In this document: positions 4,071 through 29,331 of the stretch, one piece after another
Layout of the letters: each line of letters opens with the position of its first letter
Numbering within the stretch: the stretch's first letter is position 1
NCBI GenBank assembly: GCA_965248435.1
Contig: OZ252100.1
Location: 2,080,001 to 2,144,000, forward strand
DNA from: Candidatus Latescibacterota bacterium
GTDB taxonomy: Bacteria; Latescibacterota; UBA2968; GCA-2709665
Length of the DNA stretch: 64,000 bases
Reading direction: 5' to 3'
Program-made: the position numbers and the translations under genes
The notes under the pieces: generated by a model
Seen by the model: the letters and a program-made list of their open reading frames with translations, nothing else
The model's database searches: none
Told to the model about the DNA's origin: nothing

Positions 4071-4073
4071 ATC

Positions 4074-8699: not shown

Positions 8700-8719
8700 T
8701 AAGACTCTCGAAGAATGTC

Positions 8720-8804: not shown

Positions 8805-8838
8805 GTTGCCGGGGCCAGTAAGCTTCTTCACTTGAGAA

Positions 8839-9696: not shown

Positions 9697-9729
9697 ATCT
9701 CCTTCTCCGATACTAACCAATACGATCTG

Positions 9730-10167: not shown

Positions 10168-10254
10168 TTGATTTCTAGATTCTACAAAGCCGCGAGCACA
10201 ATGTCAGCTGGCCCAGCGAGTTCCTGTCCGAAATGCAGAATATCTCTGCTGTCG

Positions 10255-10722: not shown

Positions 10723-10742
10723 AGAAGTTTCCCCGGATCGAG

Positions 10743-11087: not shown

Positions 11088-11124
11088 GATCTACTCCTCA
11101 GCTCGCACGAGCAAGTTCAACATC

Positions 11125-11730: not shown

Positions 11731-12532
11731 TTGTGCCTATTCTTCTCTTCCTGGCCTCAAATATTCCCGCAGCCTTGGTAATGTGGATAGGACCTCGTGA
11801 GGCAATTTCTGCTTCCAGGATCCTTCTGAACTCTGGCAACTTTGCTTCGTCAAGCCTGTTGCTCGAAAGAACGTAGGTTACTAAAGGTTCGACCTCTGGA
11901 ACGATCAAAGCGTCATCACGCAGGTGAACTTTGACTTCGTCAAACCATTCCGAAAGCTGTTCTGTTCCACTCTCAAGGTCAAAATGGAAGCCCGGCCTAA
12001 TCGGGTAGGCAGCCGGATCGGCCCTTTTGGCAAGATCGATAAGCTCCTTCATATGACCTTTCCCAACAGTCGATGCGAAAAAACGCCCGTTCGCCTTCAA
12101 GACTCGCCACATTTCCGAGAGTGCTTTGGGCCTATCGGGCACGTGATAGAGCATATGATTTGCAATCACTGTATCAAATGTCTCATCTGTAAAAGGAATT
12201 GCCTGAGCATCGATAAGTTTGAAATCGAATTTGCGTTGGCTCTCTCTAAGATTGTCCTGGGCTTCCTGAAGCATCCCCGATGAGAAGTCTGAAACCGTTA
12301 TGTCCCACCCATTAGGAAGACGGTCCAAATTCTTCCCCCACAACCAGGCAGGTCCGCAGCCCAGTTCGAGTATGCGATTGCTGGGAGGGAGCCTCAGATG
12401 ATCGAAGATCCATCGATTCCAACTACCCTTGTTTACACTGAATAGCCCATGTAGTTGCGAACGATCTTTGAGGTTGGTAGCATCTTTGTATTGATGCGTA
12501 AGAAGATGCTCTCGATCCGTTTTCTTATCCAT
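11714..12532 (-). CDS. Class I SAM-dependent methyltransferase
   Basis: ILELGCGPA, D.S.GML, FDTVIANHMLYHVPD. Confidence 0.85.
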   Translation of the reverse strand: MDKKTDREHLLTHQYKDATNLKDRSQLHGLFSVNKGSWNRWIFDHLRLPPSNRILELGCGPAWLWGKNLDRLPNGWDITVSDFSSGMLQEAQDNLRESQRKFDFKLIDAQAIPFTDETFDTVIANHMLYHVPDRPKALSEMWRVLKANGRFFASTVGKGHMKELIDLAKRADPAAYPIRPGFHFDLESGTEQLSEWFDEVKVHLRDDALIVPEVEPLVTYVLSSNRLDEAKLPEFRRILEAEIASRGPIHITKAAGIFEARKRRIGTNESVF

Positions 12533-12575
12533 AAGATCTATCAATGCTTGTAATGCTCACGCACAACTGATTGCA

Positions 12576-13256
12576 CTAGATTGTGACTATCTCCAATACC
12601 TCATCGAGTGAATCGATCTGATGCATCGGTTCAGGTTGCTCAGACGGCCAAGTATGATAGCCGCACTTCCATATAGGGGTCATTCGAACGGCGGCGGCTC
12701 CCAAGACATCGTTAACTGGATGATCCCCCACAAACCATGCCTCCTTCGCCGAAACTCCTACCTCGGAAAGACCAACTTCGAATATCCTAGCTTCAGGCTT
12801 TTTCACTCCAATGGCTTCTGATACTATGACACAAGACATCTGATCCCTAATGCCGAGGACGTCTATTTTCAAGTTCTGCCCAAATTCAGACCCGTTTGTT
12901 ATGATCCCAACCTTCAACCCTAGTCCTTTCAGACCCTTCAACGTCGTGCCGACTCCGGGAATAGGCTTGGCACATTTCGGAAATCTGGTCCTCCAGAAGT
13001 CACTTATCTCCTCAGCGGATGGACTAGGCTCCCAAGGAAGGATCCTTGTGAGTTCGGTGAAGAATTCATCTTTCGGCCTATAGCCGCCCTGGTCCGCATT
13101 GCGAATACTATTGAAAACTTCCTCATAGTCAGTCGAATCAAAGAGGTGCGAGAAGTGATCGTAGAAGACTTCCGCAAATGCCACTAAGGTGCCCTCTCTG
13201 TCTACCAGAGTGTTATCTAAATCAAAGAATACGCATCCATGACCAACAAGAGACAT
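12576..13256 (-). CDS. HAD-family hydrolase
   Basis: FFDLDNTL, ITNG, KKP...IF, FVGDHP.NDV; TGATG overlap with upstream gene. Confidence 0.85.
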   Translation of the reverse strand: MSLVGHGCVFFDLDNTLVDREGTLVAFAEVFYDHFSHLFDSTDYEEVFNSIRNADQGGYRPKDEFFTELTRILPWEPSPSAEEISDFWRTRFPKCAKPIPGVGTTLKGLKGLGLKVGIITNGSEFGQNLKIDVLGIRDQMSCVIVSEAIGVKKPEARIFEVGLSEVGVSAKEAWFVGDHPVNDVLGAAAVRMTPIWKCGYHTWPSEQPEPMHQIDSLDEVLEIVTI

Positions 13257-13984
13257 CACCATCCATCCTGTTCCTTTGTACCGCCAAATATCGCGTGACC
13301 GGCCTTCATCCAATAGACGTCAACATTCTCGAACCCTGCTTCCTCCAGCCACTTCAGCTGATCGAGCAGACTGGAGGGCTTATCAACGGGATCGGGATAC
13401 CGATAGAAATTCCATTTCATTTTCCTAAAAGCGTCGAAGGCCTTCTGATCGCCGTCAAACCTAAGGGCGCGCTCAAGCACAGCGTCATCCCAGGCCTTTG
13501 CTGCGTATTCGATTGCAGTTTTATCGACGGGCTGAATCAAGTCTGCAATCAGAAAATCGCCTCCCGGATCCAGAACTCTGCAAATGTCTTGAAAGAGCTG
13601 CTTCTTCTGCTCTCCATCCAAATGATGAATGCCTAGCGAGGAGACCACTACCCTAACAGAGAAGTCAACGGTTCGCCAAGAGCGATCTGCTAGCTCAAAG
13701 ATCCTCGTTTTGTATCGGCCTTTATACTGAGCAAGATTAGCCTCAGCACGTTTCAACATATCGGGCGAACCGTCGAATCCGCATACACTACAGTGTGAAA
13801 ATTTCTCAAGTAAAGCTCCTGCCAGGGTTCCATCTCCGCAGCAGATATCGAGTATGTTGATTTGCTCCTCACACTCTGGAATCAAAGCACAAATAGTCTC
13901 AATTTGTTCCTCACGATCAGGCACGAAGTATCGGCCGAAATCCATGAAAGTTTCAGAGTCTTGTTCGGTCCAGGTCTCTTCCAT
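13256..13984 (-). CDS. Class I SAM-dependent methyltransferase
   Basis: ILDICCGDG, SSLGIHHL, L.PGG. Confidence 0.85.
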   Translation of the reverse strand: MEETWTEQDSETFMDFGRYFVPDREEQIETICALIPECEEQINILDICCGDGTLAGALLEKFSHCSVCGFDGSPDMLKRAEANLAQYKGRYKTRIFELADRSWRTVDFSVRVVVSSLGIHHLDGEQKKQLFQDICRVLDPGGDFLIADLIQPVDKTAIEYAAKAWDDAVLERALRFDGDQKAFDAFRKMKWNFYRYPDPVDKPSSLLDQLKWLEEAGFENVDVYWMKAGHAIFGGTKEQDGW

Positions 13985-14004
13985 TGCAGAAATCTGCCCT
14001 TGGC

Positions 14005-14469
14005 TTATAGATCCAAGTGCATCCTCTGAGTCTCAGGCTCGAAGCCCTGGGATCTGAAGAGGCTTTGCGCCTCCTGATTGAAGCACCATACTTCGAGGTC
14101 CAACCGATGTATCCCTTTTTCTCTGGCTATCGCCTTCGCTTCTTCTACAAGCTTAGCCGCGAGTCCACGTCGACGGAAATCTCTAGCCACAGCAATCTGC
14201 TCGATATACAACGACTTGAAAGCAAACCGGAGTTGATTCTCCGGCCTCTCCCTCACGATGGCAACCATATACCCCACTAATTCGCTCTCTTCTGCAATAA
14301 GGATCACCGATTTCTCATCCTTTAGACGTTCTGCAAAATTCTCCCTTGAGGCTTCGGACACAAGAGGCTTGAAAAAGTCTGGTCGTGCCTCAACGTGGAT
14401 GTCGTGAACCCATCGCCTGAGATCAGCAAGAGCATCCAGATCCTTCTCTGTGGCCCGCCTGATTTCCAC
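14005..14469 (-). CDS. GNAT N-acetyltransferase
   Basis: IAV...FRRRGLA, N..A..LF...GF. Confidence 0.85.
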   Translation of the reverse strand: MEIRRATEKDLDALADLRRWVHDIHVEARPDFFKPLVSEASRENFAERLKDEKSVILIAEESELVGYMVAIVRERPENQLRFAFKSLYIEQIAVARDFRRRGLAAKLVEEAKAIAREKGIHRLDLEVWCFNQEAQSLFRSQGFEPETQRMHLDL

Positions 14470-14496
14470 TGTGGTTTCCCTTTATAATCCTCTTAG

Positions 14497-15285
14497 CTAC
14501 TGTGCAATTAGTCCGCCATCTACGACCATGGCGTGACCAGTAACAAAGGAGGCTGCGTCTGAACAGAGCCATACCACCGCTTCGGCAACCTCCTCAGGGG
14601 TCCCTATTCTACCGCTCGGCTCCTTCCGAATGTTATCTCTTTCTAGTTCTATTCTCGCTTCGGGACTACCGCCTGCAATGACTTCGCCTAATCGCTCATA
14701 CATCGGTGTCCGAATCGTGCCTGGGCACACGGCATTGACCCGAATGCCTGCCTGAGCAAATTCCAACGCTGCGGTCTTGGTCAGCCCAACAACACCATGC
14801 TTACTGGCAATATACGCTGGTAAACCCAGGTCATTTCCCACCAGCCCCATTGTCGAGGAGGTGTTCACAACCGCGCCACTCCCCTGCTCAAGCATCTGTT
14901 GGAGTTCATATTTCATGCACAGCCACACCCCTTTGAGGTTGACGCCAATGACTTGATCCCAATTCTCCTCTGAACATTTGTGAGTGCTGGCTTGAACGCC
15001 TTCGATTCCTGCGTTATTGTGTGCGCAGTCTAATCGACCGAACATCCCGATGGCGCTCTTGAATAGTATTTCTACATCTGAGCGTTTCGAGACATCGACT
15101 GGCACGAACAGCGCATCGGTTCCGGATTTCGAGATCAGATGCGCTGTCTCTTCTCCGCCTTCAGTGTCTATGTCACCAATGATGACCCTTGCTCCCTCCC
15201 TGGCAAATGCTAGAGCCGAAGCTCTTCCCATTCCAGAGCTCCCTCCGGTTACGAGCGCAACCTTGTCCACCAGGCACCCCGACAT
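14497..15285 (-). CDS. Short-chain dehydrogenase/reductase (SDR)
   Basis: TGGSSGMG, NNAG, Y.ASK, RVNAVCPG, VDGG. Confidence 0.9.
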   Translation of the reverse strand: MSGCLVDKVALVTGGSSGMGRASALAFAREGARVIIGDIDTEGGEETAHLISKSGTDALFVPVDVSKRSDVEILFKSAIGMFGRLDCAHNNAGIEGVQASTHKCSEENWDQVIGVNLKGVWLCMKYELQQMLEQGSGAVVNTSSTMGLVGNDLGLPAYIASKHGVVGLTKTAALEFAQAGIRVNAVCPGTIRTPMYERLGEVIAGGSPEARIELERDNIRKEPSGRIGTPEEVAEAVVWLCSDAASFVTGHAMVVDGGLIAQ

Positions 15286-16044
15286 CTAGGTCTCTCTCAG
15301 AGTCTTTTTGAACACGAACAGGTCTACGGGCTCGAGGATCGGCCCGTCGGGCTGGAAATCCTCGTCTCTGGCCATCGCTTCCAGTCCCTCTTCGAACTCT
15401 GAATCAGTGATGCTTGCCAGATCCGACAGAGCCCGTTGAGCGATTTTCTCTCTGTATTCACTGAAAGATACCGCAAACGCCTGATTGATCACTGTGTGGT
15501 CAACTAGACTAAATCCATTCGCTTGTATGGTCCCGATAAGCTCCGATTTTCCAGGCAGCATTTTCTTTCCCACACGTCGGGCACTTGGAAAATACTTTAG
15601 ATACGGCACGCGATCATGCAGATCCAAGGTCGAGTTCCGGATACATAGCTTGCCACCTGCTCTGAGCACCCGGAACCACTCACGAGTCGCTTCGATCGGC
15701 TCAGTGAGGTGATGGAACACCATTGAGAGAAAGACTAAGTCAGATGAATCATCTCTGATGGGGACAGCGTGAGTGTCTCCTCTGACAAATCTCACATTAT
15801 TTCCACCCGATCTGGCTTGGCTAAGCATTCTAAAGGAGGGATCGATCCCAATGAGCCTTGCATTGAACCTTTCGGCAAGGGCATCAGAGAAGCGTCCGGT
15901 CCCACATCCAACATCTACAATACACCTCACCGGTCCAACGATCAGATCTGCAATCGCATCCAGCCAGATCCTCAGTGTGGCTTCGGGGAGCTGCCTCGCT
16001 TTTACATAGGTGGCAGGTATGTCAGTGCGGTCGTACTCTAACAT
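15286..16044 (-). CDS. Class I SAM-dependent methyltransferase
   Basis: VDVGCGTG, RVLRAGG. Confidence 0.85.
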   Translation of the reverse strand: MLEYDRTDIPATYVKARQLPEATLRIWLDAIADLIVGPVRCIVDVGCGTGRFSDALAERFNARLIGIDPSFRMLSQARSGGNNVRFVRGDTHAVPIRDDSSDLVFLSMVFHHLTEPIEATREWFRVLRAGGKLCIRNSTLDLHDRVPYLKYFPSARRVGKKMLPGKSELIGTIQANGFSLVDHTVINQAFAVSFSEYREKIAQRALSDLASITDSEFEEGLEAMARDEDFQPDGPILEPVDLFVFKKTLRET

Positions 16045-16090
16045 TGGGATCCAGTATGCTTGCGACGCCTACCAAATCTAAGCGCTCACC

Positions 16091-16762
16091 TCATTCGATC
16101 ACATAACTGACTACAATTCTCAGACAATCCGGGAACCGAACGATATCGATCTCGTTCGAGTATGGACGAATAATTTCCCTTAGCTCCCCATCCGAGAGAT
16201 AATGCTTGATCACACGGTAACGTGACCCATCTCGCAGCTCACGCGTCTGTATGTGGTTTCCTGCCTCATCATATAGGCCGGTGATGTTGTGATTGTGGGG
16301 CAACTGATCGCAGAACACCACCCTTGAATTTGGCTTCAGTCGCTCGTGCAGCCCTTGAAGAAATCCGTTAAGGCGTGACTTAGGAACGTGTGCAAACCAG
16401 TCAACGGCAAATGCGGCGTCAAATGATTCACTCACCGATGTGAGATCGTACGCATCCACGGCTTGCAACGAAACCTTGTCCCAATCTAGGGATTTACGTC
16501 GCGCTTGCTCCAAAGCCGACTCATTATAGTCTGTGGCAAGAATGGAATCGGCAACCTTACTAACCAGGGCGGTCCAGAAGCAGGGGCCGCAGGCGACTTC
16601 AAGAACCCTCCTCTCCCTCAGCAGGTCCTGTACTTCCCTAATCACGGGAGCGAGAGCCTTGACCGTTTCTGGCTGGTCATACCCCATAGACTGATCGTAG
16701 CGGGGTGCCCTCTTCCCGTAGTAGGTCTGCATTTCCTCTACAATCGTTTCTTTCAATTTCAT
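16091..16762 (-). CDS. Class I SAM-dependent methyltransferase
   Basis: VLEVACGP, FDAAFA..WFAHVP. Confidence 0.85.
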   Translation of the reverse strand: MKLKETIVEEMQTYYGKRAPRYDQSMGYDQPETVKALAPVIREVQDLLRERRVLEVACGPCFWTALVSKVADSILATDYNESALEQARRKSLDWDKVSLQAVDAYDLTSVSESFDAAFAVDWFAHVPKSRLNGFLQGLHERLKPNSRVVFCDQLPHNHNITGLYDEAGNHIQTRELRDGSRYRVIKHYLSDGELREIIRPYSNEIDIVRFPDCLRIVVSYVIE

Positions 16763-16798
16763 GTTGCCCTTACCCCCTAACTGACCTTTGGGTGACAG

Positions 16799-17161
16799 TT
16801 AAACCACAATTATCATCTCCACTCTATTCCCGAACGGATCACGAAATTCGAAGCGTTCAAAGCCTGGGACAGGTACTGATTCGAATATCTCAACACCTTC
16901 ATCAGTTAGGCGCGACCGCCAAAATGCCAGGTCCGATACCTCATAAGCCAGATGCGCTTTTGTCGCTTGACGATCAACACCATCCTCTGTCCCGATGTGG
17001 ACTTCCCCATCCCCGACCTTGAGCCATAGGCCACCGCGTGCTTTCAGAATATCGGGCTTCTCCAACTCCTTTAGCTGCAGAGTTCCACAATAAAAGCTTC
17101 TCGCTTCCTCTTCAAAGCCTCTTGGGATTGTGATCTGTGCGTGATGAATGCCCTTTATCAT
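16799..17161 (-). CDS. VOC/glyoxalase family protein
   Basis: IHHAQITIP...ARSFY, HLAYEV, RDPFGNRVE. Confidence 0.85.
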   Translation of the reverse strand: MIKGIHHAQITIPRGFEEEARSFYCGTLQLKELEKPDILKARGGLWLKVGDGEVHIGTEDGVDRQATKAHLAYEVSDLAFWRSRLTDEGVEIFESVPVPGFERFEFRDPFGNRVEMIIVV

Positions 17162-17207
17162 CTTGCTATCTCTTGGCCTTCTACCGCTAAGGCCGTTGAA
17201 ATTTCCT

Positions 17208-17601
17208 TCAGGCATCGCCCTGTCCTCCGGTCAATCTTGCTGCCTTACGCCTCAATTCCTCGGTCTCGGCATCGCACAGCCGCTCCTCCGGGCTGATTTC
17301 AGTGCGCTCAACAAACGCCACGATTAGAGGACGGTTAATGAGCCATTCGAGACGATCCTCGTTGCCGGCAAAATCGGGGCAGTCTACATCATCATCGCTC
17401 TGCTACCTTGTAGAGGAACCCTTCTCCTATCTTGCCATCGTGCTTGACCCCTGAATTGGAAGCAGAAACGATAGTGGGTTTATGAGAGAATGCACGGGCT
17501 GCGTCCCTATTCTGCGTAATAGCACTACCCGGTTTAAGTGTGGTTAGGTCTTTGTAAGGCGACCCATGGTACCACGTGCCGTCATAGTCCCAGTCTTTCA
17601 C
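17208..17601 (-). pseudogene. Small protein split by frameshift near 17395, possibly ADP-ribosyltransferase fold
   Basis: WYHGSP...LKPGS...GFLYKVAE then DDVDCP...EWLINRPL in another frame to stop at 17208. Confidence 0.55.
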
Positions 17602-17604
17602 GAT

Positions 17605-18228
17605 CTACTCCCTATAAGGCCGACTTGGTGCAATCCTTTGGCCACTTTTCACCTTTTCAAATTTCTCTCGAGTAAGAATCAGATCATAGCAACTGCGTGC
17701 CTTTCGCCCTGGAGGTTGCGGCACTACTGAGTCCACTTCATATCCGTTCTTCTGAAACGCCTTTAGGCTCCGAGGATTATAATCAGCCACATCGCAAGCG
17801 AAGATCACGTCTGATTGTTCCTCTTCAAATCCCAATTCGCTTAGTAGACCAACGACTCTCGTCCCTATCCCATGCCCCCATAGATCCTTTTCGCCAATCG
17901 TGAGGTCAATTCGACGACAGTCTAGATCTGGATAGCTTTTAAGGATCCTCTCAAGATTCATTTGCTGAAGCCAGCACTCCCCGATCGACCGACCATCATA
18001 CTCCGCAATAAAGCAAAAGGCTGCTTGTGACACAGAGCGATAGATATTGTGAACTTCCTCGAGGGTTCGTCCTGTGACATTATCCCCTTCGGAAAAGTAG
18101 AGCACTTCTGGATCACTATTCCATTTCATTAATAAGTCCCAGTCTGCCTCGGTCATCGGACGCAAGATCAATTCTTCGTCCTCAAGTGTGACATCATGTA
18201 GTCTCAGCTTGTCCACACATATCTCCAC
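17605..18228 (-). CDS. GNAT N-acetyltransferase
   Basis: IGEKDLWGHGIGT, DYNPRSLKAFQKNGY. Confidence 0.85.
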   Translation of the reverse strand: MEICVDKLRLHDVTLEDEELILRPMTEADWDLLMKWNSDPEVLYFSEGDNVTGRTLEEVHNIYRSVSQAAFCFIAEYDGRSIGECWLQQMNLERILKSYPDLDCRRIDLTIGEKDLWGHGIGTRVVGLLSELGFEEEQSDVIFACDVADYNPRSLKAFQKNGYEVDSVVPQPPGRKARSCYDLILTREKFEKVKSGQRIAPSRPYRE

Positions 18229-18263
18229 AGGAGGCAGTCGATTGAGCTGCTCAGTTGTCGTCT

Positions 18264-19022
18264 TTACTTCGCTGAGTCGACGGGTTTCCTGGCGACTGCG
18301 ATCAGGCGGTCGGCTTTCCGCCCATATTCGACGCCCTCGAAGTTACCATAGAGCTTCACTTCATTAAAGCCCACATCGGCCAGTCTATCCTTCAACTCTT
18401 GGCCGGAATAGATTGTGTGATGGAAGCTGAAGCTTAACACTTCCGAGCCCTTGACCATCGTCCACTCGTTTCGGATCCGAGTCCATTCGTCAAAGATCTC
18501 ACGGCGGTACACCATCAGAGTCCCGTCATCCAGCTTCTCAGACGTCGTGGACAGAAATATCTTCGCCAATCGTTCCTTCCCAATGATATCGATCACGACG
18601 GCGCCCCCGGGCACGAGATTCGCCAAGACGTTCTGAAGCACTTTGAGGTCTTCTGCTTTGTCATCGAAGTATCCGAATGATGTGTAAGAGTTCAGTACAA
18701 GGTCGAATGCATTGGGCCGAAGGAACTCCCGCATGTCCTCCTGGACCCACTCGATATCTAGCCCCTCATCCGCTGCCCTCGTTTTGGCTTTGTTCAGCAG
18801 AAAGGGAGTTCTATCCACTCCAGTGACACGGAATTCACGTCGTGCGAAAGGGATGCAGAACCGACCGGGACCGCAGCACAAGTCGAGAACCGATCCAGAG
18901 CTTAGATTGACCAACTCCAGCAGCTTGTCGACCAGCTCCTCTGCCGCTTGAAACTTGCTTTCAGGAAATATGAAAGGATATGTTTCGATCCAGAAGGATT
19001 CATCTTCAAACCATTGTGTCAT
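18264..19022 (-). CDS. Class I SAM-dependent methyltransferase
   Basis: VLDLCCGPGR, DMR, TSFGYF, L.PGG. Confidence 0.85.
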   Translation of the reverse strand: MTQWFEDESFWIETYPFIFPESKFQAAEELVDKLLELVNLSSGSVLDLCCGPGRFCIPFARREFRVTGVDRTPFLLNKAKTRAADEGLDIEWVQEDMREFLRPNAFDLVLNSYTSFGYFDDKAEDLKVLQNVLANLVPGGAVVIDIIGKERLAKIFLSTTSEKLDDGTLMVYRREIFDEWTRIRNEWTMVKGSEVLSFSFHHTIYSGQELKDRLADVGFNEVKLYGNFEGVEYGRKADRLIAVARKPVDSAK

Positions 19023-19075
19023 TCCTGACCCCTACTGTCTGCTGTTATGAGCCGGCGACTGTGCGAAACTTGATC

Positions 19076-19897
19076 CTATGACCTGTTCTTTTCCATCCAG
19101 CCGGCTGCGAAATCGACCAACTGAGGCTGAGGTATATGTTGGCAATCAGCTTGACCAACTCGGCCACTAAGAACCACTTCCCTACCATCGGTTCGCACAA
19201 AGTCCTCTCCAATCTGCGCGAAGTCGGAACTATCGAGATCGATCTCTTCGAATGTCGTCCACTGCCTCTTGCCGTCCATCCAGACCGGTGCGCCCTCCTC
19301 CAGCACCTTCTTCGACGGGTATGTGGAGCGATATTCCGCCAAGTGCATAGAGGTGTTCCTGGCGTGATCCACACCCAGGAGCAGGACACACCCGTCGAGT
19401 TCATAGATTCGCGCCAAAGGGGATCCCTCGCCCAAACCGTTGGGCAAAGGATGATCTCCTGTTATTCGTCCCGCATATTCGCCCCAGGCACAGAAGGAGT
19501 GGTGTGGGTGTGCGCTTCGAAGTACGCCTGGCTGCTTTCGAAAGGTCTCTGGTATCGCACCTATGGCTCGAGTTGGAGTAAAATCAGGATCGAATGCCGG
19601 CATGCTCTGACGGATAACCTCCCACCAGGACTCCGGAACTGGAGGGTTCTCCCATCTGCTCGGTTCGGTCAAATCCGTTGAGTGTGCTGGCATAACTAAA
19701 GTTCCGGTCGATCCTAAAGCCTCTTCAAGAGCCAGAATCACTGCTACAGCCCCGCCACAGACCCACCCGATGGAACTCAAGGAAGAATGCACCAGGAGCA
19801 CCATGTCTGGCTGTACACCCAGCGCATGTAGATCGGCCTTCAGCGACTCGACAGTCGCTAGCGTTTCGGTCCTTTTGACAGTCTCAGCTTCTGGCAT
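19076..19897 (-). CDS. AAC(3)/YokD-family aminoglycoside N(3)-acetyltransferase-like protein
   Basis: VHSSLSSIGWVCGG, GTLVMP, RSAHP..SF, NTSMHLAE motifs. Confidence 0.9.
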   Translation of the reverse strand: MPEAETVKRTETLATVESLKADLHALGVQPDMVLLVHSSLSSIGWVCGGAVAVILALEEALGSTGTLVMPAHSTDLTEPSRWENPPVPESWWEVIRQSMPAFDPDFTPTRAIGAIPETFRKQPGVLRSAHPHHSFCAWGEYAGRITGDHPLPNGLGEGSPLARIYELDGCVLLLGVDHARNTSMHLAEYRSTYPSKKVLEEGAPVWMDGKRQWTTFEEIDLDSSDFAQIGEDFVRTDGREVVLSGRVGQADCQHIPQPQLVDFAAGWMEKNRS

Positions 19898-19935
19898 AGG
19901 AATCGGCCCTGTAAGAGCGCAGAAACAAGAGGTGG

Positions 19936-20733
19936 TTACACGACAATAACTTTGAACACCGTAATCGCCTTGCCCATGATCACATTGAAGTCCTTATCAA
20001 CCTGTACCCGGACCAAACCAGTCCTCCTCGATATCTGCTTCCCCGTTAGCTCCTTCCTGCCAAGTCTATCTGCCCAATATTGCCCAAGTGTCGAATGAGC
20101 AATGCCAGTCACCGGATCTTCGTCGATTCCTACGGGCGGTGCAAAGAATCTCGAAACGAAATCGATTCTGTTCTCATCAGACTTCGCGGTCACGACGCAG
20201 CTGTGTCCATTTCTCTTCATCCGAGAGAGATCGGGACTGAGGTCGCGTATTCCTGCTGGATCGTTCAACAGAACGATGTGGTAATCGAATCTGCTCCTAA
20301 AAATCTCCTCGCAGCGATCTATTCGCAATTCGTCCAACAACCCACCAGCATCTGTTACGCAGGTAATCTCATCCTTTGGGAACTTCATCGCAATCCAGTC
20401 ATCTTGTTTTCTCACCTTCAGCAGATCGTTTGGCGCTTCAAACAGGATTTCGGAACCTTCCTGCACAATGGCCGATTCGTACAGGATATGCGCCGAGGCC
20501 AGAGTAGCGTGGCCGCACAATGGGACTTCAGTTTCAGGAGTGAAATACCTGATGGCATACCGATCTACTTTGGGGATCACGAACGCTGTCTCTGACAGAT
20601 TCATTTCTCCGGCAATTTGCTGCATCCATTGCTCATCGGCAGGCCCAGGCAACACGCACACCCCCGCCGGATTCCCCTTGAATTTGGTCTCTGCAAATGC
20701 ATCAACCTGATAGAGCATGATCTCTTTGGCCAT
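19936..20733 (-). CDS. PhzF family isomerase
   Basis: VDAF..KGNPAGV, EMNLSETAF, EVPLCGHATLA, EDPVTG. Confidence 0.9.
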   Translation of the reverse strand: MAKEIMLYQVDAFAETKFKGNPAGVCVLPGPADEQWMQQIAGEMNLSETAFVIPKVDRYAIRYFTPETEVPLCGHATLASAHILYESAIVQEGSEILFEAPNDLLKVRKQDDWIAMKFPKDEITCVTDAGGLLDELRIDRCEEIFRSRFDYHIVLLNDPAGIRDLSPDLSRMKRNGHSCVVTAKSDENRIDFVSRFFAPPVGIDEDPVTGIAHSTLGQYWADRLGRKELTGKQISRRTGLVRVQVDKDFNVIMGKAITVFKVIVV

Positions 20734-20754
20734 ATTCTTTCCTTGGATTACCGT

Positions 20755-21501
20755 TCACGGCTTCCTGGCTACAAAAAACATCCTGCCCTCGTGCCTTGAG
20801 AGTCCTTCTGCAATCGGATCCTTCCCATCAAACGTCAGAATCGCATCAAAGCCTGCCTTCTGAAACGCTGATTTCACCTCGCTCTCTGAATACCATCTCT
20901 GGAGCAGGGTTGAATCGCTCCGGTTCCAATTTCCTCGATCCAGTTCAAAGATCGTAAATTCAGTCTTCCCAATCCGTTGCTTTTCATCCCTGCTTGTACG
21001 TACCACAAACACGTGGTCATCTTCGACATGGCCACGCGATCCGCCCCACCTGGCCAGGTAAGCGTCCTCCATGTTCAAATCGAACTCGAAGTATCCCCCA
21101 CCTTCGAGGGCTTCGTATACGCTTCGGAAAACCCTCTCTAACTCCTCCAAAGTCATGACATGGTTCAAGCTGTCAAAGGTTGAGAAGGCGGCATTGAATT
21201 TCTTGGGCACAGAGAACTCACGGGCGTCTGAGACAAGAAACTCTGCATCTGGTGCCTTCTTGCGCGCAATCTCAATCATCTGCTCAGAGCCATCGATCCC
21301 CGTTATCTTGTATCCCTGCTCTACCAGTCTTGCGGCCAGCTGCCCTGTGCCGCAGCAGAGGTCAAGCACAGCACAATTCCTGGGCAGATGTCTCAGCACC
21401 AGGTGATCTGCGATCGCATACGCTTTGGTTGCAAAGAAGCTCCAATGCCGGTTATACACTTTGGCAAAAGGGTCATAGTCACTGTAACGAGTCACTGACA
21501 T
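20755..21501 (-). CDS. Class I SAM-dependent methyltransferase
   Basis: VLDLCCGTG, FDSLNH, GGYFEFDLN. Confidence 0.85.
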   Translation of the reverse strand: MSVTRYSDYDPFAKVYNRHWSFFATKAYAIADHLVLRHLPRNCAVLDLCCGTGQLAARLVEQGYKITGIDGSEQMIEIARKKAPDAEFLVSDAREFSVPKKFNAAFSTFDSLNHVMTLEELERVFRSVYEALEGGGYFEFDLNMEDAYLARWGGSRGHVEDDHVFVVRTSRDEKQRIGKTEFTIFELDRGNWNRSDSTLLQRWYSESEVKSAFQKAGFDAILTFDGKDPIAEGLSRHEGRMFFVARKP

Positions 21502-22105
21502 GGAACTCCCCTGCTGAATGTTTGCAACATGTCGGACTTTCGTTCATTTGATCGTGGGGCCGACTTTCTGCAACAGCCTTGGAAATGATACTCCCTACAT
21601 TGATATTCCCACCCTTCAAGATTCTCGCATATACCCCTCGTAAGTGCAATCCTTGTCTATCGGCCGCGTTGACGAAGTTAGAGGCTTCCTTTCCATAACG
21701 CGCTAGGAACTTCCTGCAACCATTGTGCGCCAAATCGGTGACTTCCAGAATTACATCATCAATAGCGAGCAATTGCCCTGCAGGCAAATTCTCTTCTCTG
21801 AGATCTAAATCAACAATCAGATTATCCCCTGCCAGGGACCATCTCTCTTTAGTTACAGTTATGAGGTCGAGCATGCGCACGTTTATGAGAGAGACCTGGT
21901 TACGAGTGCCATACTTACTGGAGGTAGTCCACCTATCACCTTGAATTCCTTCTTCTGGGGACAGATAGGCGCTCTCGAGTAATTCGCGTTCGCCCTCTTT
22001 TGGACGAATGAGTATGGCTTCCAGCGTTCCCCGATCCTCTGGAGACTGAAGAACTTGAGAAAGTCCACTTTCAATATCTGACTCGGTAACGAACAATTCT
22101 CCCAT
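21479..22105 (-). CDS. MOSC-domain protein
   Basis: GI.GDRW, LAGDNL.VD, H.GC.KF, LRGVYARI..GG.I.VG. Confidence 0.8.
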   Translation of the reverse strand: MGELFVTESDIESGLSQVLQSPEDRGTLEAILIRPKEGERELLESAYLSPEEGIQGDRWTTSSKYGTRNQVSLINVRMLDLITVTKERWSLAGDNLIVDLDLREENLPAGQLLAIDDVILEVTDLAHNGCRKFLARYGKEASNFVNAADRQGLHLRGVYARILKGGNINVGSIISKAVAESRPHDQMNESPTCCKHSAGEFHVSDSLQ

Positions 22106-22198
22106 GTCATTTCTCCAGGAACGCAAAATTCTCCTAGGTATCTCAGTTAAGCGGCTTCATTTCTTGATTTGTCTAGTCTTCCTGAGGCTCCGCTTGGA

Positions 22199-22288
22199 TC
22201 ACCTGCCTCGTCTCGGTCTCCTCCGGACGCCACTTTTTAAGTGGCTTAGCTCCTCCTTCCGGCTCAATACATCTCTGAAGGTCTGCAT
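22199..22288 (-). CDS. 29-aa basic small ORF (MQTFRDVLSRKEELSHLKSGVRRRPRRGR)
   Basis: AAGGAG RBS 7 nt before ATG, just after the attenuator terminator. Confidence 0.35.
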   Translation of the reverse strand: MQTFRDVLSRKEELSHLKSGVRRRPRRGR

Positions 22289-22335
22289 CCTGGACTCCTT
22301 TCTGCAATTTCTTGTATGACGACGGAATTTTGGGT

Positions 22336-22375
22336 AAAAGAAAAACCCGCTGTCGAGAGGTCTCAACGGCGGGTT
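22336..22375 (-). terminator. Attenuator terminator at the head of the gene array
   Basis: AACCCGCCGTTGAG-loop-CTCGACAGCGGGTT followed by TTTCTTTT on minus strand. Confidence 0.85.
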
Positions 22376-22400
22376 CAGGTTCTGGCGCAAGTTGTCTTGC

Positions 22401-22538
22401 TCAAGGCCACAAACGATCCCGCCGCTCCATCTTAAGGGAATGCCAGTTAATAACGGCGTAGGCTTCTACCCTCTGATGCGAATGGGCAGGTCCCTTAGTT
22501 AGTGCGATTGTGAAGCATGAAGTTCGGCGGGTGATCAT
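22401..22538 (-). CDS. Leader peptide L1, 45 aa (MITRRTSCFTIALTKGPAHSHQRVEAYAVINWHSLKMERRDRLWP)
   Basis: AGAGGT RBS; homologous to leader at 29000-29122; internal GCGGCGGG complementary to the terminator 5' arm. Confidence 0.7.
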   Translation of the reverse strand: MITRRTSCFTIALTKGPAHSHQRVEAYAVINWHSLKMERRDRLWP

Positions 22539-22586
22539 TAGATTTTACCTCTTCTGTTCATTAGTAGTGTGCATCCAACTGGTGAG

Positions 22587-22616
22587 AATATATAAACAGG
22601 CACCCTTTGGAGTCAA
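22587..22616 (-). promoter_or_regulatory. Sigma70-type promoter for leader L1 and the array
   Basis: TTGACT-18 nt-TATATT. Confidence 0.6.
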
Positions 22617-22685
22617 GGTTTTTCTCTTTTTTGGACGACCAGCCCTGCTCGAACATCACCCTTGCTGTGTAACGCTGATACGCGA

Positions 22686-25600
22686 TCACTGGATATGCTT
22701 TTCCAGGAAAGCTTCACTGATCCGCCCTGTCTGTAGATACGTCCCGTCTTTGAGAACAAGGATATTCGTCGGCCAGCTCTTGACTTTGAGGGCTCCGATC
22801 AGTGTCGAATCTGCCAATACTTGAGGCCAGTCCATTTCGAACCTCTCGACCACCCGCTTGGCATCGGGGAGTTTGTTGACCTTCACAAAACTCACCATCT
22901 TCAGCTTATCCTTCCGGATCTTCCGATTCATTATCACCAGGGAGGGTATCTCCTGAATACAGGGTGGGCACCACTCGCCCCAGAAATTTAGCAAAGCATA
23001 CTGACCTCGCAGGGATTCTAAGTCGACAGTCTCACCGGAGATGGACTCGTAGTGGCCTTCCCAGAAAGACGCGGGAATCTGTCCAGTTTCCTGGACGGGA
23101 CTCGGCACCTTACTTCGCGCTTCCCGCCTGACTGAATCTCGTTCTGCCATCTCCTTTTGATGATAGAACGTCGGCGCCTCGCCCGTCTTGCTAAGGGTCA
23201 TCCTCTCACCATATGGATGAACGAACGAAAGTTTGTAGTTCTCTTCCCCAATCGTGAAGACGTCGTTCAGCTTAAACACTTCTACCTCCGTGGGTTCCAG
23301 TGACGGACCCCTGGCCCAACGCTTCAAGCCGCCTTCGCGATCTAGGTCGATGATGAGGAAGTCCCCCTCATCGTTGTAAAGTCCATTTCCGCTGAGATCC
23401 CACAGCCCGATCTCGTAGTCGGACTGATTAACCGTAACCCGGCCTCGACGCATGGAGAGATCGCCCCGGAAGTAGTACGTCCCAACCTCGCCGGTGAAGT
23501 CAGGGTAAAGTCTCTTCCAGAACCCCGCTGGACCTGCAAGCAGATCTCCACTAACTGTGTCTATGTACGAAGCCAGCATCTCTGATATTCTCTTGTTAGA
23601 AGGATGGTCATCTGGAAGGTGTCTAAGATGTGGTCTCCGCTGCCAGAGCCTCGCCGTCTTCTGTTTCGGATCTTCTCTGTCAGCTAGCCAGATCACAAAA
23701 TCGTTCTCATCGCGCGGAAAGAATCCCGGACTTCCGTCGTTCGTAAGGTCCTCGTCGTTGTTCAGATCGACATAGAACCGATCCCCATCCTTTTGTGGAA
23801 TCACCATCACGGAAATAATGCGATCTTCTCCAACTGCGGGCCGGTGACCCGTTTCGTAGAAATAGGCGGGGCGATCGGTAGCGGGAAGTTTCAGCTTTTC
23901 CCTCGGTTCCCTGTGGGACCCGACTATACTCACTCCGATACCGTCCAACCCGGTCAAATCAGGAAGCAGGACCTCTATCTCCTTCTTCTCGACAACCACC
24001 GGCTTCTTGCGTTCGCCCACAGGATCACGCGGTGCGCTGAGAACCGTAAGGGTCTTCTCTATGTCCTTCTTACCATCGAGATAGACTTCGAATCTCCACT
24101 TTCCGGGTTTGTCCAACGACCGGTCGAATTCATACTCAAAGATCGTCTCTTTCGGCCAACGCTCACCTTGAAGATCGTGCTCGGCGACTAACCTTCCTGC
24201 GCCGTCGTAGATCTTGCAAGCGATGTCCGCCTCTTCTCTGGGAACACCCCAGTTCACGAAGGCATAGACCTTACCTTTGGCGATCGAGATCTCTTTTATC
24301 TCGTCCATAGGTTTGTTCCCGCCGGGGCCACCCAGTCGAGTCGTGAGAACCGCGTCGCCCCGCCTGATCCTTGTCGGGACAAACCGGAGTCCCTTGATCG
24401 ACTCACCCGCCTCGACTGCGAATTCCAAGGGCTCCACGCCCTCGCCGTACACGACTGAAACTCTGATCTGTCCGGGAAAGACCGGGGCGCGGAAGCTGCC
24501 ATCAATCGACGTGGTCGCGCCCGACCTCGCCCATCCCTCTTCATCCTCGACGCGGATGCCCGCACCGGGCCAGGGCGATCCATCTTCGCGAGTCACCCTG
24601 CCCGAAACGCTGCCCAGGTTGTCCAGACTGGGTCGATAGGGAACCCACCCGACGTATCTGACACCCAGCAGAAGCCTGCCGTCATTCAACTCTCTGATAC
24701 CGTTGACGTGTCCTGCGGGTAGACCATCCTCACTCGTGATGAGCAGCCACCCACCGTCCTGATAGCGCAACAGACCGCCACGGCTTTCGAGGCCGTGATG
24801 GTGGTAAGATGTGCCCATCCAGATCGTGCCGTCCTTTATTTGGCAGATGGCTGAAGCCCCGCCTGCCGGCAGGCCGTGAACCTCGTTCAACGTCTTCCAG
24901 GACGCTCCATCAAACACGGAGATTCCGTTGCGGTACGAGTGCGTCCCCCAGACCTTTCCGTCCTGAGCGACGAGGATCTCGTAGGTCTTTTTGCCACCCA
25001 ACCCGTCCTCTCGAGTGTAGGAGGTCCACTGTTTTCCATCGAAGCGGCTGATCCCCAACCGTGTCCCAACCCAGACCGATCCATCCCTCCCGTCTGCGGC
25101 GCTGTAGACGCGGTTGTGCGAAAGCCCGTCCTCCACTCGAAAGTTTCGCCAGTTCTTTCCATCAAAACGTGTGACGCCGTGACCCTCATCTCCGACCGGG
25201 TGCGCCCTCATCCATATGTTCTCTTTGCTGTCGAAGCACAGTGCGTACACGGCAGGCCCGATGCTCCTGTCGTGGGTGGTGATCTCCCAGTCCTTTCCAT
25301 CGTAGCGCGCGAGCGCAGGATTGGTTCCCGCCTCGTGGCTTCCCGAAAACCACAATGTTCCGTCCTCGGCCTGGAGCATGGATGTAGTCCATCCATCCAT
25401 CAAGCCGTCCGCAGGACCGTAGGTCGTCTTCTCTTTACCGTCGAATCGGATGATCTCTCCATGCATCGAAGACCGGCCCCAGACGCTGCCGTCTTTGGCA
25501 AATAGAGGCAGGAGCAGGCCTCCCATCTCCTGAATCGCGGTATCGATGCTCGCGCTTAACGAAACCGAATCAGTCCCCCTATTTCCGAAAACGGTCGCCT

Positions 25601-27363: not shown

Positions 27364-28677
27364 TCAAGGATGGAGCCTGTTAGGAGTACGTGGCAGGAAC
27401 GTGGTCTCCCGTATGTTGGGACGATCGAGCAAGACCATGAGGAGGCGGGAGAGACCCAAACCGAAGCCGCCGTGAGGAGGGCACCCGCACTTGAAAAAGT
27501 CTAGGTAGAACTGGATGGAGTCGAGGCTCATGCCAGTTTCTCGGGCCTGAACTACTAACCGCTCCAAGCGGTGTTCTCGCTGGGCGCCTGTGGTGATCTC
27601 AAGACCCTTCCAGAGAAGATCGTAGCTTTTCGTGATGTGCGATGCTTCCTCGTATCGCATGTGGTAGAAGGGACGTACCGATACTGGATAGTCGGTCACA
27701 AATACAAACTCATGGCCGAACCTGCCGTGCACGTGCTCCCCTAATAGCCTTTCTCCTTGAGGATCTAGCTCACCCGAGTAGGGCACCTCGTAGCCTTCCT
27801 GTTCAAGATAGCCGATGGCCTCACTCAAGGTGACCCGCGGAAAGGGAACAGAAGGGACAATCATCTCCAAACCAAAGAGATTAGCGATTTCATGCCCATG
27901 TTTCTCGCTAACAGTCTGAAGCGCATACGACAGCCACCTTTCCTCGAAGGCCATCACATCCTCGTGAGACTCGATCCAGCCGATTTCCACGTCCACGCTT
28001 GTGAACTCGGTGGTGTGCCGCGAAGTGAATGATGGGTCTGCCCGAAAGACGGGTGCGACTTCGAAAACCCGATCCAGGCCCCCAGCAATGGCCATCTGCT
28101 TGTAGAACTGCGGCGACTGAGCCAGGTATGCCCGTTTCTTAAAATACTCAAGTCCGAAAAGCTCGGAACCTGACTCACTAGGGCTACCCATCAGCTTGGG
28201 GGTATGGATCTCGATGAAACCCTCCCTGATCCAGAAGTCCCGCATCGCTTGTTCAAGTGTGGTCTGCACTCGGAACAGAAGATGGTTCTCCGGACGCCGC
28301 AGATCGAGGTAGCGCCAGTCGAGCCTTAGATCCTGACCAGGGAGTGGTGTGGCAAAAGGATCTATCGGTAGAGGAGACACCGCCAGGTTCTCTATCTGAA
28401 GACCGGTCAGGCAAAGTTCGATTCCTCCAAGCTTCACCTGCGGGTTTTCTACCAACTCTCCTGTCACAATCACGGCGGACTCGCGAGTGAGGTCAGACGC
28501 ATGTTCTGCTAGAGAGGGATTTCCCTCCTTTTCTATCACAGCCTGTGCACAACCTGTGTGGTCTCGCAAGATGAGAAAGATCATGTGCTTCTGGTCACGG
28601 ATGGTCTGAACCCACCCCTGCACTGTAACGGTATGACCAGCCTTACTAGGCAGCTCAGAGATTAAAGTGCGTTCCAC
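27364..28677 (-). CDS. aspS: Aspartate--tRNA(Asp/Asn) ligase, short archaeal-type, probably non-discriminating
   Basis: OB fold GWVQTIRD..LRD.TG; RLDWRYLDLR; LAQSPQFYKQ; FRAD...RH..EF; GAQREH; PPHGGFGLG..R; 437 aa without GAD insert. Confidence 0.9.
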   Translation of the reverse strand: MERTLISELPSKAGHTVTVQGWVQTIRDQKHMIFLILRDHTGCAQAVIEKEGNPSLAEHASDLTRESAVIVTGELVENPQVKLGGIELCLTGLQIENLAVSPLPIDPFATPLPGQDLRLDWRYLDLRRPENHLLFRVQTTLEQAMRDFWIREGFIEIHTPKLMGSPSESGSELFGLEYFKKRAYLAQSPQFYKQMAIAGGLDRVFEVAPVFRADPSFTSRHTTEFTSVDVEIGWIESHEDVMAFEERWLSYALQTVSEKHGHEIANLFGLEMIVPSVPFPRVTLSEAIGYLEQEGYEVPYSGELDPQGERLLGEHVHGRFGHEFVFVTDYPVSVRPFYHMRYEEASHITKSYDLLWKGLEITTGAQREHRLERLVVQARETGMSLDSIQFYLDFFKCGCPPHGGFGLGLSRLLMVLLDRPNIRETTFLPRTPNRLHP

Positions 28678-28700
28678 AGTAGTATCCTCCTATCTGAGAG

Positions 28701-28740
28701 AAAAAAGAAAAAGCCCGTCGCAATGCATCAACGACGGGCT
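28701..28740 (-). terminator. Attenuator terminator 2 upstream of aspS
   Basis: AGCCCGTCG-loop-CGACGGGCT followed by TTTTCTTTTTT. Confidence 0.85.
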
Positions 28741-28761
28741 CTGAAATTGAACGCGGGGTTA

Positions 28762-28902
28762 TTAACTGCCAAACCACGGTCCTGCCCGCCGTTGGATGGG
28801 ATTATTATCGTCGTTCGGATTGGGATTCAGATTCAGGTAGACTTTGGTCACGATCGGCTCCTTCACGATAAGTTGAGAAGCAATTGAATGGATCCTGATC
28901 AT
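28762..28902 (-). CDS. Asn/Asp-rich leader peptide L2, 46 aa (MIRIHSIASQLIVKEPIVTKVYLNLNPNPNDDNNPIQRRAGPWFGS)
   Basis: AAGGAG RBS; 6 Asn + 2 Asp in 11 codons; CAACGGCGGGC pairs with terminator arm GCCCGTCGTTG. Confidence 0.8.
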   Translation of the reverse strand: MIRIHSIASQLIVKEPIVTKVYLNLNPNPNDDNNPIQRRAGPWFGS

Positions 28903-28934
28903 TTCAGTTGATCTCCTTAGGGGGCAATGTTCTG

Positions 28935-28975
28935 AAAAAGAAAAAACCCGCTGTTGATTGGCTCAACGGCGGGTT
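28935..28975 (-). terminator. Attenuator terminator 1 upstream of aspS
   Basis: AACCCGCCGTTGA-loop-TCAACAGCGGGTT followed by TTTTCTTTTT. Confidence 0.85.
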
Positions 28976-28999
28976 ATTGTTTGCGTGTAGGTTATCTGC

Positions 29000-29122
29000 T
29001 CAGGGCAATACAAGATCCCGCCATTGGATGCCATAATTATTGGGGTTGGAATCAGGATTGAATCCCTTGGCTCCGTTCATCAATGCTATCGAAGACAAAC
29101 GGGGTTTACGGCGAGTTATCAT
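29000..29122 (-). CDS. Asn-rich leader peptide L3, 40 aa (MITRRKPRLSSIALMNGAKGFNPDSNPNNYGIQWRDLVLP)
   Basis: AAAGGAG RBS; NPDSNPNN cluster; CAATGGCGGG pairs with terminator arm CCCGCCGTTG. Confidence 0.8.
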   Translation of the reverse strand: MITRRKPRLSSIALMNGAKGFNPDSNPNNYGIQWRDLVLP

Positions 29123-29331
29123 CAGTCAGAATCTCCTTTGGATTGATCGGTTACGGTATACGTACAATAATCGACAAAAATTGTGTAGAGTCAAGATTTT
29201 TCTCAGGACGGGTAGGATTTCGGAGCCTCGGCGTTATATTGGGCCCGGTCTTACGCATTATAGTGCAAGTGCACTGAAAGGAAACGCCCGTGATCGATGA
29301 TCGCCAGCTTGTCGAAGCGAGGTGTTTCTGC

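Follow-up and report, generated by a model that had tools for sequence, protein, structure and literature searches.

The locus described here raises the question of what a short leader unit, designated L1, contributes at the upstream end of a long row of co-oriented genes, the far part of which is an integron-like cassette array. L1 lies on the minus strand, at 22616-22336, of a stretch of 64,000 nucleotides (nt), hereafter the window, from the genome of a Candidatus Latescibacterota bacterium (contig OZ252100.1, positions 2,080,001 to 2,144,000; G000:C1:2080001-2144000, with G000 denoting the genome under study). It is proposed, with confidence that is about evenly balanced, that L1 is a derived leader-peptide attenuator which has no codon run and which serves as a sensor of translation speed for at least the first genes of the integron-linked row.

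The anatomy of L1 was observed in silico and includes every element that a reading made from the sequence alone (the sequence-only reading) had named, i.e. a promoter, a ribosome-binding site, a 45-amino-acid leader and a terminator, all on the minus strand and at the coordinates given there. The promoter is sigma-70-like (22587-22616), with TTGACT at 22616-22611 and TATATT at 22592-22587 separated by 18 nt (10 of 12 matches). A Shine-Dalgarno (SD) sequence, AGAGGT (22547-22552, with GAGG at 22551-22548), is located 9 nt before the ATG of the leader open reading frame (ORF), which occupies 22401-22538, runs from MITRR to LWP over 45 codons plus TGA, and has the sequence MITRRTSCFTIALTKGPAHSHQRVEAYAVINWHSLKMERRDRLWP. 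The intrinsic terminator (22336-22375) has arms at 22375-22362 and 22357-22344 and a T tract at 22345-22336; the 5' arm is AACCCGCCGTTGAG, the 3' arm is followed by TTTTTCTTTT, and the structure, a 13-bp GC-rich stem with T tract, was calculated at -18 to -20 kcal/mol.

The weight carried by these elements differs. Twelve promoter-like sites were identified in 3000-22700, of which the L1 promoter is the joint best, and its TTGACT box is common to L1 and to a second leader, L3 (described below); as the count of 12 is not in excess of that in shuffled sequence (15.5 +/- 3.4), the L1 promoter match alone is no proof. The 14-mer terminator arm AACCCGCCGTTGAG has two exact copies in the window, in L1 and in L3 (28975-28962), and four matches when up to 2 mismatches are allowed (0.67 expected), a number reached by none of 100 shuffles. 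The 231-nt L1 region folds at -79.5 kcal/mol (z-score -4.35), and none of 200 shuffles was as stable. Rfam 15 has no family for L1 or its paralogs: nothing was returned at L1 when the whole window was searched at the gathering score, and a search of four loci (12.8 kb in all) with the threshold relaxed to E ≤ 1 was also empty. The single match in the window was elsewhere, a lysine riboswitch (RF00168, 42282-42463, minus strand, 86.7 bits).

L1 combines the features expected of an attenuator: a promoter-proximal ORF with an SD sequence, an intrinsic terminator, a mutually exclusive antiterminator and a stop codon at which the ribosome masks the antiterminator strand. A run of codons for the amino acid of the controlled pathway is found in L3, in its tandem neighbour L2 and in the leaders of ilvB and valS, and is absent from L1. 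The earlier description of the L1 peptide, as containing all 20 amino acids and no biased codon run, was correct. Composition was nevertheless set aside as a signal and is suggestive at most, with a P of about 0.01-0.02 for all 20 residue types in a 45-mer (0.010-0.017 by simulation, the criterion having been picked post hoc); it is lost in the paralog par1, which has 19 types and no Tyr.

Region 2 of the leader (CGGCGGGAUC, 22415-22424, codons 39-42) is the 5' strand of the predicted antiterminator. Within it, CGGCGGG (22424-22418) is complementary over 7 pairs to CCCGCCG in the 5' arm of the terminator, which thereby also serves as region 3. The CCCGCCG heptamer recurs in region 1 (GAUCACCCGCCG, 22525-22536, codons 1-5); in minimum-energy folds of the terminated state, region 1 is paired with region 2 alongside the terminator. 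Covariation was assessed in an alignment of 42 distinct family sequences that had been fitted to the terminator only. The 7 antiterminator pairs were formed in 93.8% of 258 cells, compared to 30-80% in slid controls, with changes on both sides in 12 cells (C-G to U-A in 8, G-C to A-U in 3), and neither the score nor the percentage paired was reached in any of 500 shuffles. The putative 7-bp antiterminator is supported by this covariation. In L1 itself the terminated state was calculated at -77.9 kcal/mol and the state with the antiterminator enforced at -72.6 kcal/mol, while for the isolated segments the values were -30.1 (antiterminator) and -19.9 kcal/mol (terminator).

The effect of a translating ribosome was modelled by folding the nascent transcript while a footprint of 29 nt was placed at every codon in turn. 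The L1 antiterminator was intact for A-site codons 1 to about 34-35 and collapsed from codon 36 to the stop, where masking reduced its pairing to about 0.3. For L3 and L2 the end of the permissive window coincided exactly with the last Asn codons (29-30 and 34), as would be needed in a functional Asn attenuator, and this agreement validates the masking model on the amino-acid-specific relatives. The claim of the sequence-only reading that any stall upstream of the antiterminator strand would permit read-through follows from these modelled folds, and would apply to codons 1 to about 34-35.

In the mechanism proposed here, a transcript would start at the L1 promoter and its first 45 codons would be translated. 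A ribosome keeping pace would reach codons 36-45 or the stop and cover the CGGCGGGAUC strand, the terminator would form and transcription would stop at 22336-22345. With no ribosome loaded, codons 1-5 (CCCGCCG) would pair with the CGGCGGGAUC strand and the terminator would again form. A ribosome lagging in codons 1-35 would leave region 1 occupied or bypassed and the CGGCGGGAUC strand free to pair with the 5' arm of the terminator, giving read-through into the gene row. L1 would be a copy derived from attenuators for Asn, Val and Ilv in this lineage, without a single-codon run, and, due to the lack of such a run, would report general translation speed (any amino-acid starvation, or ribosome inhibition) and not the supply of one amino acid. 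It would gate at least the first genes of a co-oriented block for small modifying enzymes which continues into an attC array, and par1 would do likewise at the other large array.

Relatives of L1 in the same genome were sought with blastn and with R1, a covariance model of the 3' platform of the leaders, both of which group L1 with L3 and L2 and so bear out its assignment to the same attenuator family. L3 (ORF of 40 amino acids) and L2 (46 amino acids) are Asn-rich and stand in tandem on the minus strand at 28700-29200, upstream of a gene for aspartate--tRNA(Asn) ligase (27364-28677; NCBIfam PRK05159, 489.6 bits against a cut-off of 353). L1 and L3 have GGCGGGATC and TGAGCA in common and are 76% identical over 88 nt (E 1.9e-8); the MITRR...IAL start, the TGAGCA segment and the terminator arm, which had been reported as common to the two, were all verified. 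The frame xGG CGG GAT, with the stop 14 nt after GGCGGG, is common to L1, L3, par1 and a leader of G001, a genome of the same genus. A Val-rich leader was also found in G000 upstream of the acetolactate synthase gene ilvB (TIGR00118, 651.7 bits, above cut-off). L1 lies 6.5 kb downstream of L3, and the simplest account suggested by the sequences is that L1 arose locally from an Asn/Val-type leader, since the two are on the same strand and share the MITRR start, IAL, the platform and the terminator arm. An ABC-transporter leader of the type found in G056 (MTVRRTS...) was considered as the ancestor and rejected, as the likeness is limited to the region-1 codons and the ABC homologue in G000 (40% identity) has no leader.

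The paralog par1 (C1:1006821-1007103) is a near-complete copy of L1 (87% identity over 282 nt) and heads a second array. The module common to the two (2102336-2102634 and 1006821-1007120, approximately 300 nt, 86%) is the only long similarity at both array heads. The proteins encoded upstream both end in a thioredoxin-like domain and are only 24% identical, and the first downstream gene encodes a MOSC protein at L1 and a GNAT at par1; the difference in flanking genes indicates that the leader module was copied or converted on its own. Duplication of the whole array was rejected as the source of par1, the likeness being scattered (1.6 kb at 88%, 405 nt at 92% and the 300-nt leader at 86%, with upstream proteins at 24%). 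The genes directly upstream of L1 (22686-27130, minus strand) encode a BlaI/CopY-like repressor of 132 amino acids and then a 1349-amino-acid BlaR1-family protein with a C-terminal ResA/TlpA-like thioredoxin domain.

Two further units in the genome are incomplete. At par3 (C1:2316425-2316539), upstream of a gene for an LLM-class oxidoreductase, only the 3' platform is present, with a weakened stem and no ORF, and a different GC-rich structured sequence is fused to it as the 5' part. At L024 (G000:C1:1406864-1406968, plus strand; R1 E 0.14) a leader-like 53-codon ORF that includes NHAHDHITGTSGS is followed by a terminator and directly afterwards by an ISL3 transposase (330.8 bits); this is perhaps an attenuator severed from its operon.

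Identity between L1 and par1 is unevenly distributed. It is high in the promoter (28/30), codons 1-5 (15/15), codons 31 to the stop (46/48), the spacer (24/25) and the terminator (30/31), and lower in the 5' untranslated region (36/48) and codons 6-30 (59/75). Pooled, the regulatory segments (93-100% each) are identical at 115/119 positions compared to 95/123 for the drifting segments (75-79%), a significant difference (Fisher P 5.6e-6), and this unevenness is the pattern that the four-region model predicts.

Across the bacterial family, R1 identified leader-plus-terminator units in 21 of 22 genomes (E ≤ 0.01), and across the class in 28 of 132 (E ≤ 1e-5, stricter filters). At the loci read, the units contain SD-preceded ORFs of about 30-55 codons ending 8-20 nt after a GGCGGG-like strand. 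The genes behind them, at the loci inspected, were ilvB (Val-rich leaders), valS (Val/Asn-containing leaders), aspartate--tRNA(Asn) ligase (Asn-rich leaders), asd and DrrA-like ABC ATPases; the survey of downstream genes with a covariance model of the leaders, which the sequence-only reading had recommended, thus found the family mostly before ilvB, valS and aspartate--tRNA(Asn) ligase. Judged by its sequences, the family is one of predicted lineage-specific leader-peptide attenuators. The leaders of the ABC ATPases (L138 in G056, L140 in G116 and L041 in G015; TIGR01188 207 bits, below cut-off) have no obvious codon run, and one of them begins MTVRRTS, compared to MITRRTS in L1; they are possibly further generic or drug-responsive members.

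It was also observed that the Asn leaders (L2, L050, L051, L054, L047, L133, L134, L144, L145, L147 and L027) end in NPI(Q/R)RRAGP across the class. Its Ala, Gly and Pro residues are encoded by varying synonymous codons (GCA/GCC/GCG/GCT and GGA/GGC/GGG/GGT, for example), which indicates that the peptide is under selection in the Asn leaders. RAGP is the core of the SecM arrest motif. RAPP-like motifs are among the known arrest sequences in the accounts of PMC10987492 and PMC12992588. A ribosome arrested at RAGP would cover the antiterminator strand, enforcing termination.

The link to integrons rests on intergenic repeats. Comparison of the two gene rows using blastn revealed dozens of 50-100-nt repeats which are attC sites on the coding strand. 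In ten that were aligned, TAACACG and CGTTA are invariant, the cores TAACACG and CGTTAG (R'' and R') frame the stems, and 11 of 20 stem pairs have compensatory changes. With R2, a covariance model built from the attC sites, six were located in the window, all on the minus strand (8713-8814, 8139-8190, which is collapsed, 6936-7037, 4684-4788, 2524-2621 and 1536-1637), and at least 77 in G000 at E ≤ 0.01, in several clusters (150 of 3845 candidates scored). The distal block of the row (1536-8814, minus strand) consists of attC-separated cassettes, and the array runs past the start of the window to at least C1:2058779. Because R'' precedes R' along the coding strand, L1 lies on the upstream (Pc/attI) side of the array. 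The two intact L1-type copies each head one of the two largest arrays with attC sites, and in both cases the first attC follows 13.5-14 kb further downstream.

In 8815-22700 no attC was found using R2 with filters off (best E 0.8), leaving the 13.5 kb next to L1 free of such sites; L1 hence does not coincide with any recognisable attI or first cassette. The description of the row as a capture array accordingly holds for its distal part, which has attC sites with R''/R' cores and covarying stems, and not for the proximal 13.5 kb. No integron integrase (TIGR02249) was detected above the 265-bit cut-off in G000, and there was none at the array head, where L1 stands instead; by its sequence features the distal part is a cassette array with attC sites whose head lacks an integrase. 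The strongest IntI-like candidates in G000 (TIGR02249 191 bits, below cut-off) are encoded by a 2.5-kb repeat that occurs six times, at G000:C1:2070466-2072962 and at five further sites, with one copy lying within the array. The copies are 97.6-99.9% identical and encode a tyrosine recombinase 47-48% identical to the array-head integrase of G001; at least four of them immediately precede attC sites of the same strand, and the repeat could be a mobile integrase unit. In G001 a divergent IntI-like gene (240.9 bits) is present at the array head, and the array shares a 93%-identical FolD with the window.

Signs of change within the array were also noted. Collapsed or half attC sites on the minus strand occur at 8143-8186, 3890-4073, 3200-3280 and 963-1073; one 44-nt remnant joins R''/L'' directly to L'/R', and several others retain just the 3' half. 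Such remnants suggest ongoing deletion of attC sites and fusion of cassettes, and the attC-less proximal block may consist of former cassettes. An IS-like element of approximately 1.06 kb (G000:C1:2073845-2074905), of which the genome has roughly 35 near-identical copies, has inserted into the array and explains one of its few plus-strand ORFs.

Downstream of L1, 30 minus-strand ORFs of at least 90 amino acids were identified between 243 and 22126. They include 7 class-I methyltransferases, 5 GNATs, 1 AAC(3)-family protein (PF02522, 313.8 bits), 2 glyoxalase-family proteins, 2 HAD proteins, 2 histidine phosphatases and 1 metallophosphoesterase, along with one each of MOSC, PhzF, SDR, transglutaminase-like, DUF5069, FolD, NUDIX, GH113 and GrpB, and 1 without a family. 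The earlier summary of about 30 co-oriented genes for modifying enzymes is thus borne out by Pfam and NCBIfam as far as the families are concerned; the AAC(3)-like and Sat-like assignments fall below the NCBIfam resistance cut-offs (AAC_3 200.6 bits against 270; Sat3 53.9 against 360), the Sat-like one being weak. The label "detox" does not fit the row as a whole, in which FolD, NUDIX, GH113 and GrpB are not obviously detoxifying.

The proximal block comprises 18 co-oriented genes from MOSC to FolD (8839-22126, minus strand) without attC sites, and among its 17 junctions there are ten gaps of 9-53 nt, four overlapping or abutting pairs and three longer gaps (87, 276 and 389 nt). No terminator was detected where this block runs into the attC array, and a single 22-kb transcript may be inferred. 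Between the L1 terminator and the MOSC gene there is a small ORF of 29 codons, MQTFRDVLSRKEELSHLKSGVRRRPRRGR (22199-22288, minus strand), with a strong SD sequence (AAAGGAG), which is absent at par1. Homologues of the MOSC gene (approximately 40% identity) are present in 17 of 21 other genomes of the family; synteny was dismissed as a guide, as the three contexts inspected are not co-oriented arrays.

The row behind par1 is similar in character. Among 26 ORFs scanned were 7 GNATs and 5 methyltransferases, the rest including one each of SDR, glyoxalase, histidine phosphatase, HAD and RidA. Two segments of the attC-less proximal blocks of the two arrays resemble one another closely (14443-16045 and C1:999846-1001445, 88%; 10694-11098 and 1002175-1002579, 92%). 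They carry a methyltransferase and SDR pair, whose proteins are 97% and 82% identical, and point to recent exchange of single genes between the arrays.

A number of these and further results weigh against L1 as a translation-speed sensor for the row. Conservation of the L1 type rests on two paralogs in one genome, since no L1-type unit was found elsewhere: blastn of 41 relatives returned only terminator-sized stretches of other leaders, R1 over the 22 and 132 genomes returned other leader types only, with no score comparable to that of L1 outside G000, and two pattern scans of metagenome contigs gave 0 loci and then 44, none of the 44 with the platform. A pattern scan of genome contigs gave 52 loci, of which two (L104 and L127) have the platform and are both Asn leaders, the other 50 being chance matches, mostly in GC-rich genomes. 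Within the ORF, L1 and par1 differ by 18 substitutions, with 13 codons of 45 changing the residue and 3 silent, compared to 12.3 residue changes expected from random substitution, under which the frame would stay open 48% of the time; neutral drift fits these figures, and there appears to be no selection on the L1 peptide as such. As regards conservation of the L1 ORF, on which the sequence-only reading had made its proposal depend, frame, length and start are retained in par1, an outcome 48% likely by accident, and the peptide sequence has drifted. The SD sequence of par1 is weak (TAGGT), and par3 has neither an ORF nor a full-strength terminator. Without a ribosome, the equilibrium nascent fold already contains the antiterminator (P = 1.0), and termination in the untranslated state therefore hinges on folding order or kinetics. 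Control of the cassettes themselves is made less straightforward by the 13.5 kb between L1 and the first attC, by array gaps of 389, 276, 212, 184 and 131 nt, and by a promoter-like site with 10 of 12 matches at 10207-10179.

The alternative that survives these results best, which we nevertheless consider unlikely, is that L1 is an Asn/Val-type duplicate without regulatory codons that senses nothing, its promoter and leaky terminator giving a low fixed level of transcription and its hairpin also ending the BlaI/BlaR1-like operon. Neutral evolution of the L1 peptide and the restriction of L1-type units to one genome are consistent with such a constitutive copy, par3 shows that copies of this kind decay, and as no terminator was seen between the stop of the upstream gene (22686) and the L1 promoter, the L1 hairpin is the first terminator available to the upstream operon. 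What argues against it is that the start codon, regions 1 and 2 and the stop distance are intact in both copies while the interior drifts, although a bare terminator would not need regions 1 and 2, and that a precise module of approximately 300 nt was copied to a second array head whose flanking upstream protein is only 24% identical. If it did apply, L1 would be only an ordinary duplicated promoter-terminator module beside a decaying cassette array.

It is less plausible, and in our judgement improbable, that the C-terminal part of L1 (INWHSLKM.RRD.LWP-stop) is an arrest or sensor peptide for one drug or metabolite in the ribosome tunnel, comparable to Erm, Cat and TnaC-type leaders. Codons 31-45 are 96% identical between the copies, with 2 residue changes in 15, and the NPI(Q/R)RRAGP motif, with its synonymous variation and its kinship to known arrest motifs, implies that the family can encode signals at the peptide level. 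The same nucleotides, however, form region 2 and the helix UAAGGGA/UCCCUUA, so that a constraint on the RNA explains their conservation; they are retained in par3 without an ORF, a stall at codons 36-45 would favour termination and not induction, and no known arrest motif was recognised. Very improbable is an incidental ORF on an RNA switch controlled by a ligand or protein (riboswitch-like, or antitermination by an RNA-binding protein) on the same platform, for which the fold z-score of -4.35, the central hairpins (22440-22500) kept in par1 by one-sided changes and the fusion of the platform to another structured 5' part in par3 may be cited, but at L1 and its paralogs there is no Rfam match, the central region is the least conserved part and has no double compensatory changes, and the frame, the start over region 1 and the stop spacing match those of translated relatives.

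An attenuator that reports translation speed, the reading preferred here, can be extended to the arrays as a whole, tentatively and with more doubt than belief. The two largest arrays would have lost their integrase/Pc head and each gained a generic attenuator, and the stored genes, most of them for modification of small molecules and some of them former cassettes without attC fused into an operon, would be transcribed when antibiotics or starvation slow the ribosomes. If this is true, an attenuator heading integrase-less arrays would be another way to keep a gene store silent and to open it under translational stress, and control of cassette expression by the state of the ribosome would be a counterpart to SOS control of the integrase; SOS (stress) control of integrase expression is among the keywords of an integron review (PMC8876359). 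An amino-acid-specific attenuator would, moreover, become a general sensor by mere loss of its codon run, in parallel to the leader of whiB7, but in cis and in a phylum that lacks cultured representatives. The analysis also adds a family of attenuators for Asn, Val and Ilv, well sampled and in several cases placed before aminoacyl-tRNA synthetase genes, to a lineage for which Rfam lists none. Searches of the literature for integron attC sites in Latescibacter* found no paper, and neither there nor in searches on integron cassettes and leader-peptide attenuation did a transcription attenuator at the head of an integron array come to light.

Several known systems bear comparison with L1. Attenuation of the pheST type controls aminoacyl-tRNA synthetases, and the classical attenuators (trp, leu, his, ilv and pheST-type) resemble L1 in their four-region logic, leader ORF and terminator with overlapping antiterminator; trp and leu serve as the attenuator models cited elsewhere in this context (see the whiB7 study below). 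The relatives of L1 (L3, L2 and the leaders of ilvB and valS) belong to this classical type and have Asn or Val codons where the permissive window ends, whereas L1 has no cognate codon run, its downstream genes are not biosynthetic and its region 1 lies over codons 1-5 and not over regulatory codons. The toiL upstream ORF (uORF) of E. coli topAI-yjhQ is termed "multipurpose" in PMC12121999, where at least five classes of ribosome-targeting antibiotics are described as causing stalls at different positions that remodel the downstream RNA. In contrast to L1, which uses an intrinsic terminator, toiL works on a ribosome-binding site and on Rho-dependent termination and has no gene array.

Within integrons, leader peptides are described for cmlA (9 amino acids) and for ORF-11 in attI1, where they attenuate or enhance the translation of single cassettes, and Pc is treated as a constitutive promoter (PMC8876359, PMC4889954). 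L1 resembles Pc in being a promoter at the head of a co-oriented row; unlike Pc, it is predicted to attenuate transcription, lacks a neighbouring intI or recognised attI and stands 13.5 kb before the first attC. The term CALIN is applied in PMC4889954 to at least two attC sites without an adjacent integron integrase, which are severed from Pc. The array described here is like a CALIN in having attC sites without an adjacent integrase, an inserted IS and mobile recombinase element, and truncated attC sites, and unlike one severed from Pc in having a regulated promoter (L1, predicted) at its upstream end; CALIN, in any case, names the array and not L1.

By analogy, the system functionally closest to L1 would be the leader of mycobacterial whiB7, a gene that ultimately controls drug-modifying enzymes among others. 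As described in PMC10274678, which also cites trp and leu as models, this leader combines a uORF with a rho-independent terminator/antiterminator and senses general translation stress, efficient translation leading to termination and slowing by ribosome-targeting drugs or many starvations leading to read-through; single Trp or His codons in the uORF set which starvation is sensed, and the uORF of M. smegmatis contains all amino acids except Cys. L1 shares with it a short uORF without a strict single-codon run and with broad residue content (20/20 in L1, 19/20 in par1), followed by a terminator/antiterminator. The two have no sequence relationship: whiB7 has an Ala-rich uORF and acts through a transcription factor with positive feedback, whereas L1 would act in cis on a row of enzyme genes and, unlike whiB7, derives from the Asn/Val/Ilv attenuators of an uncultured lineage and heads an integron-like array.

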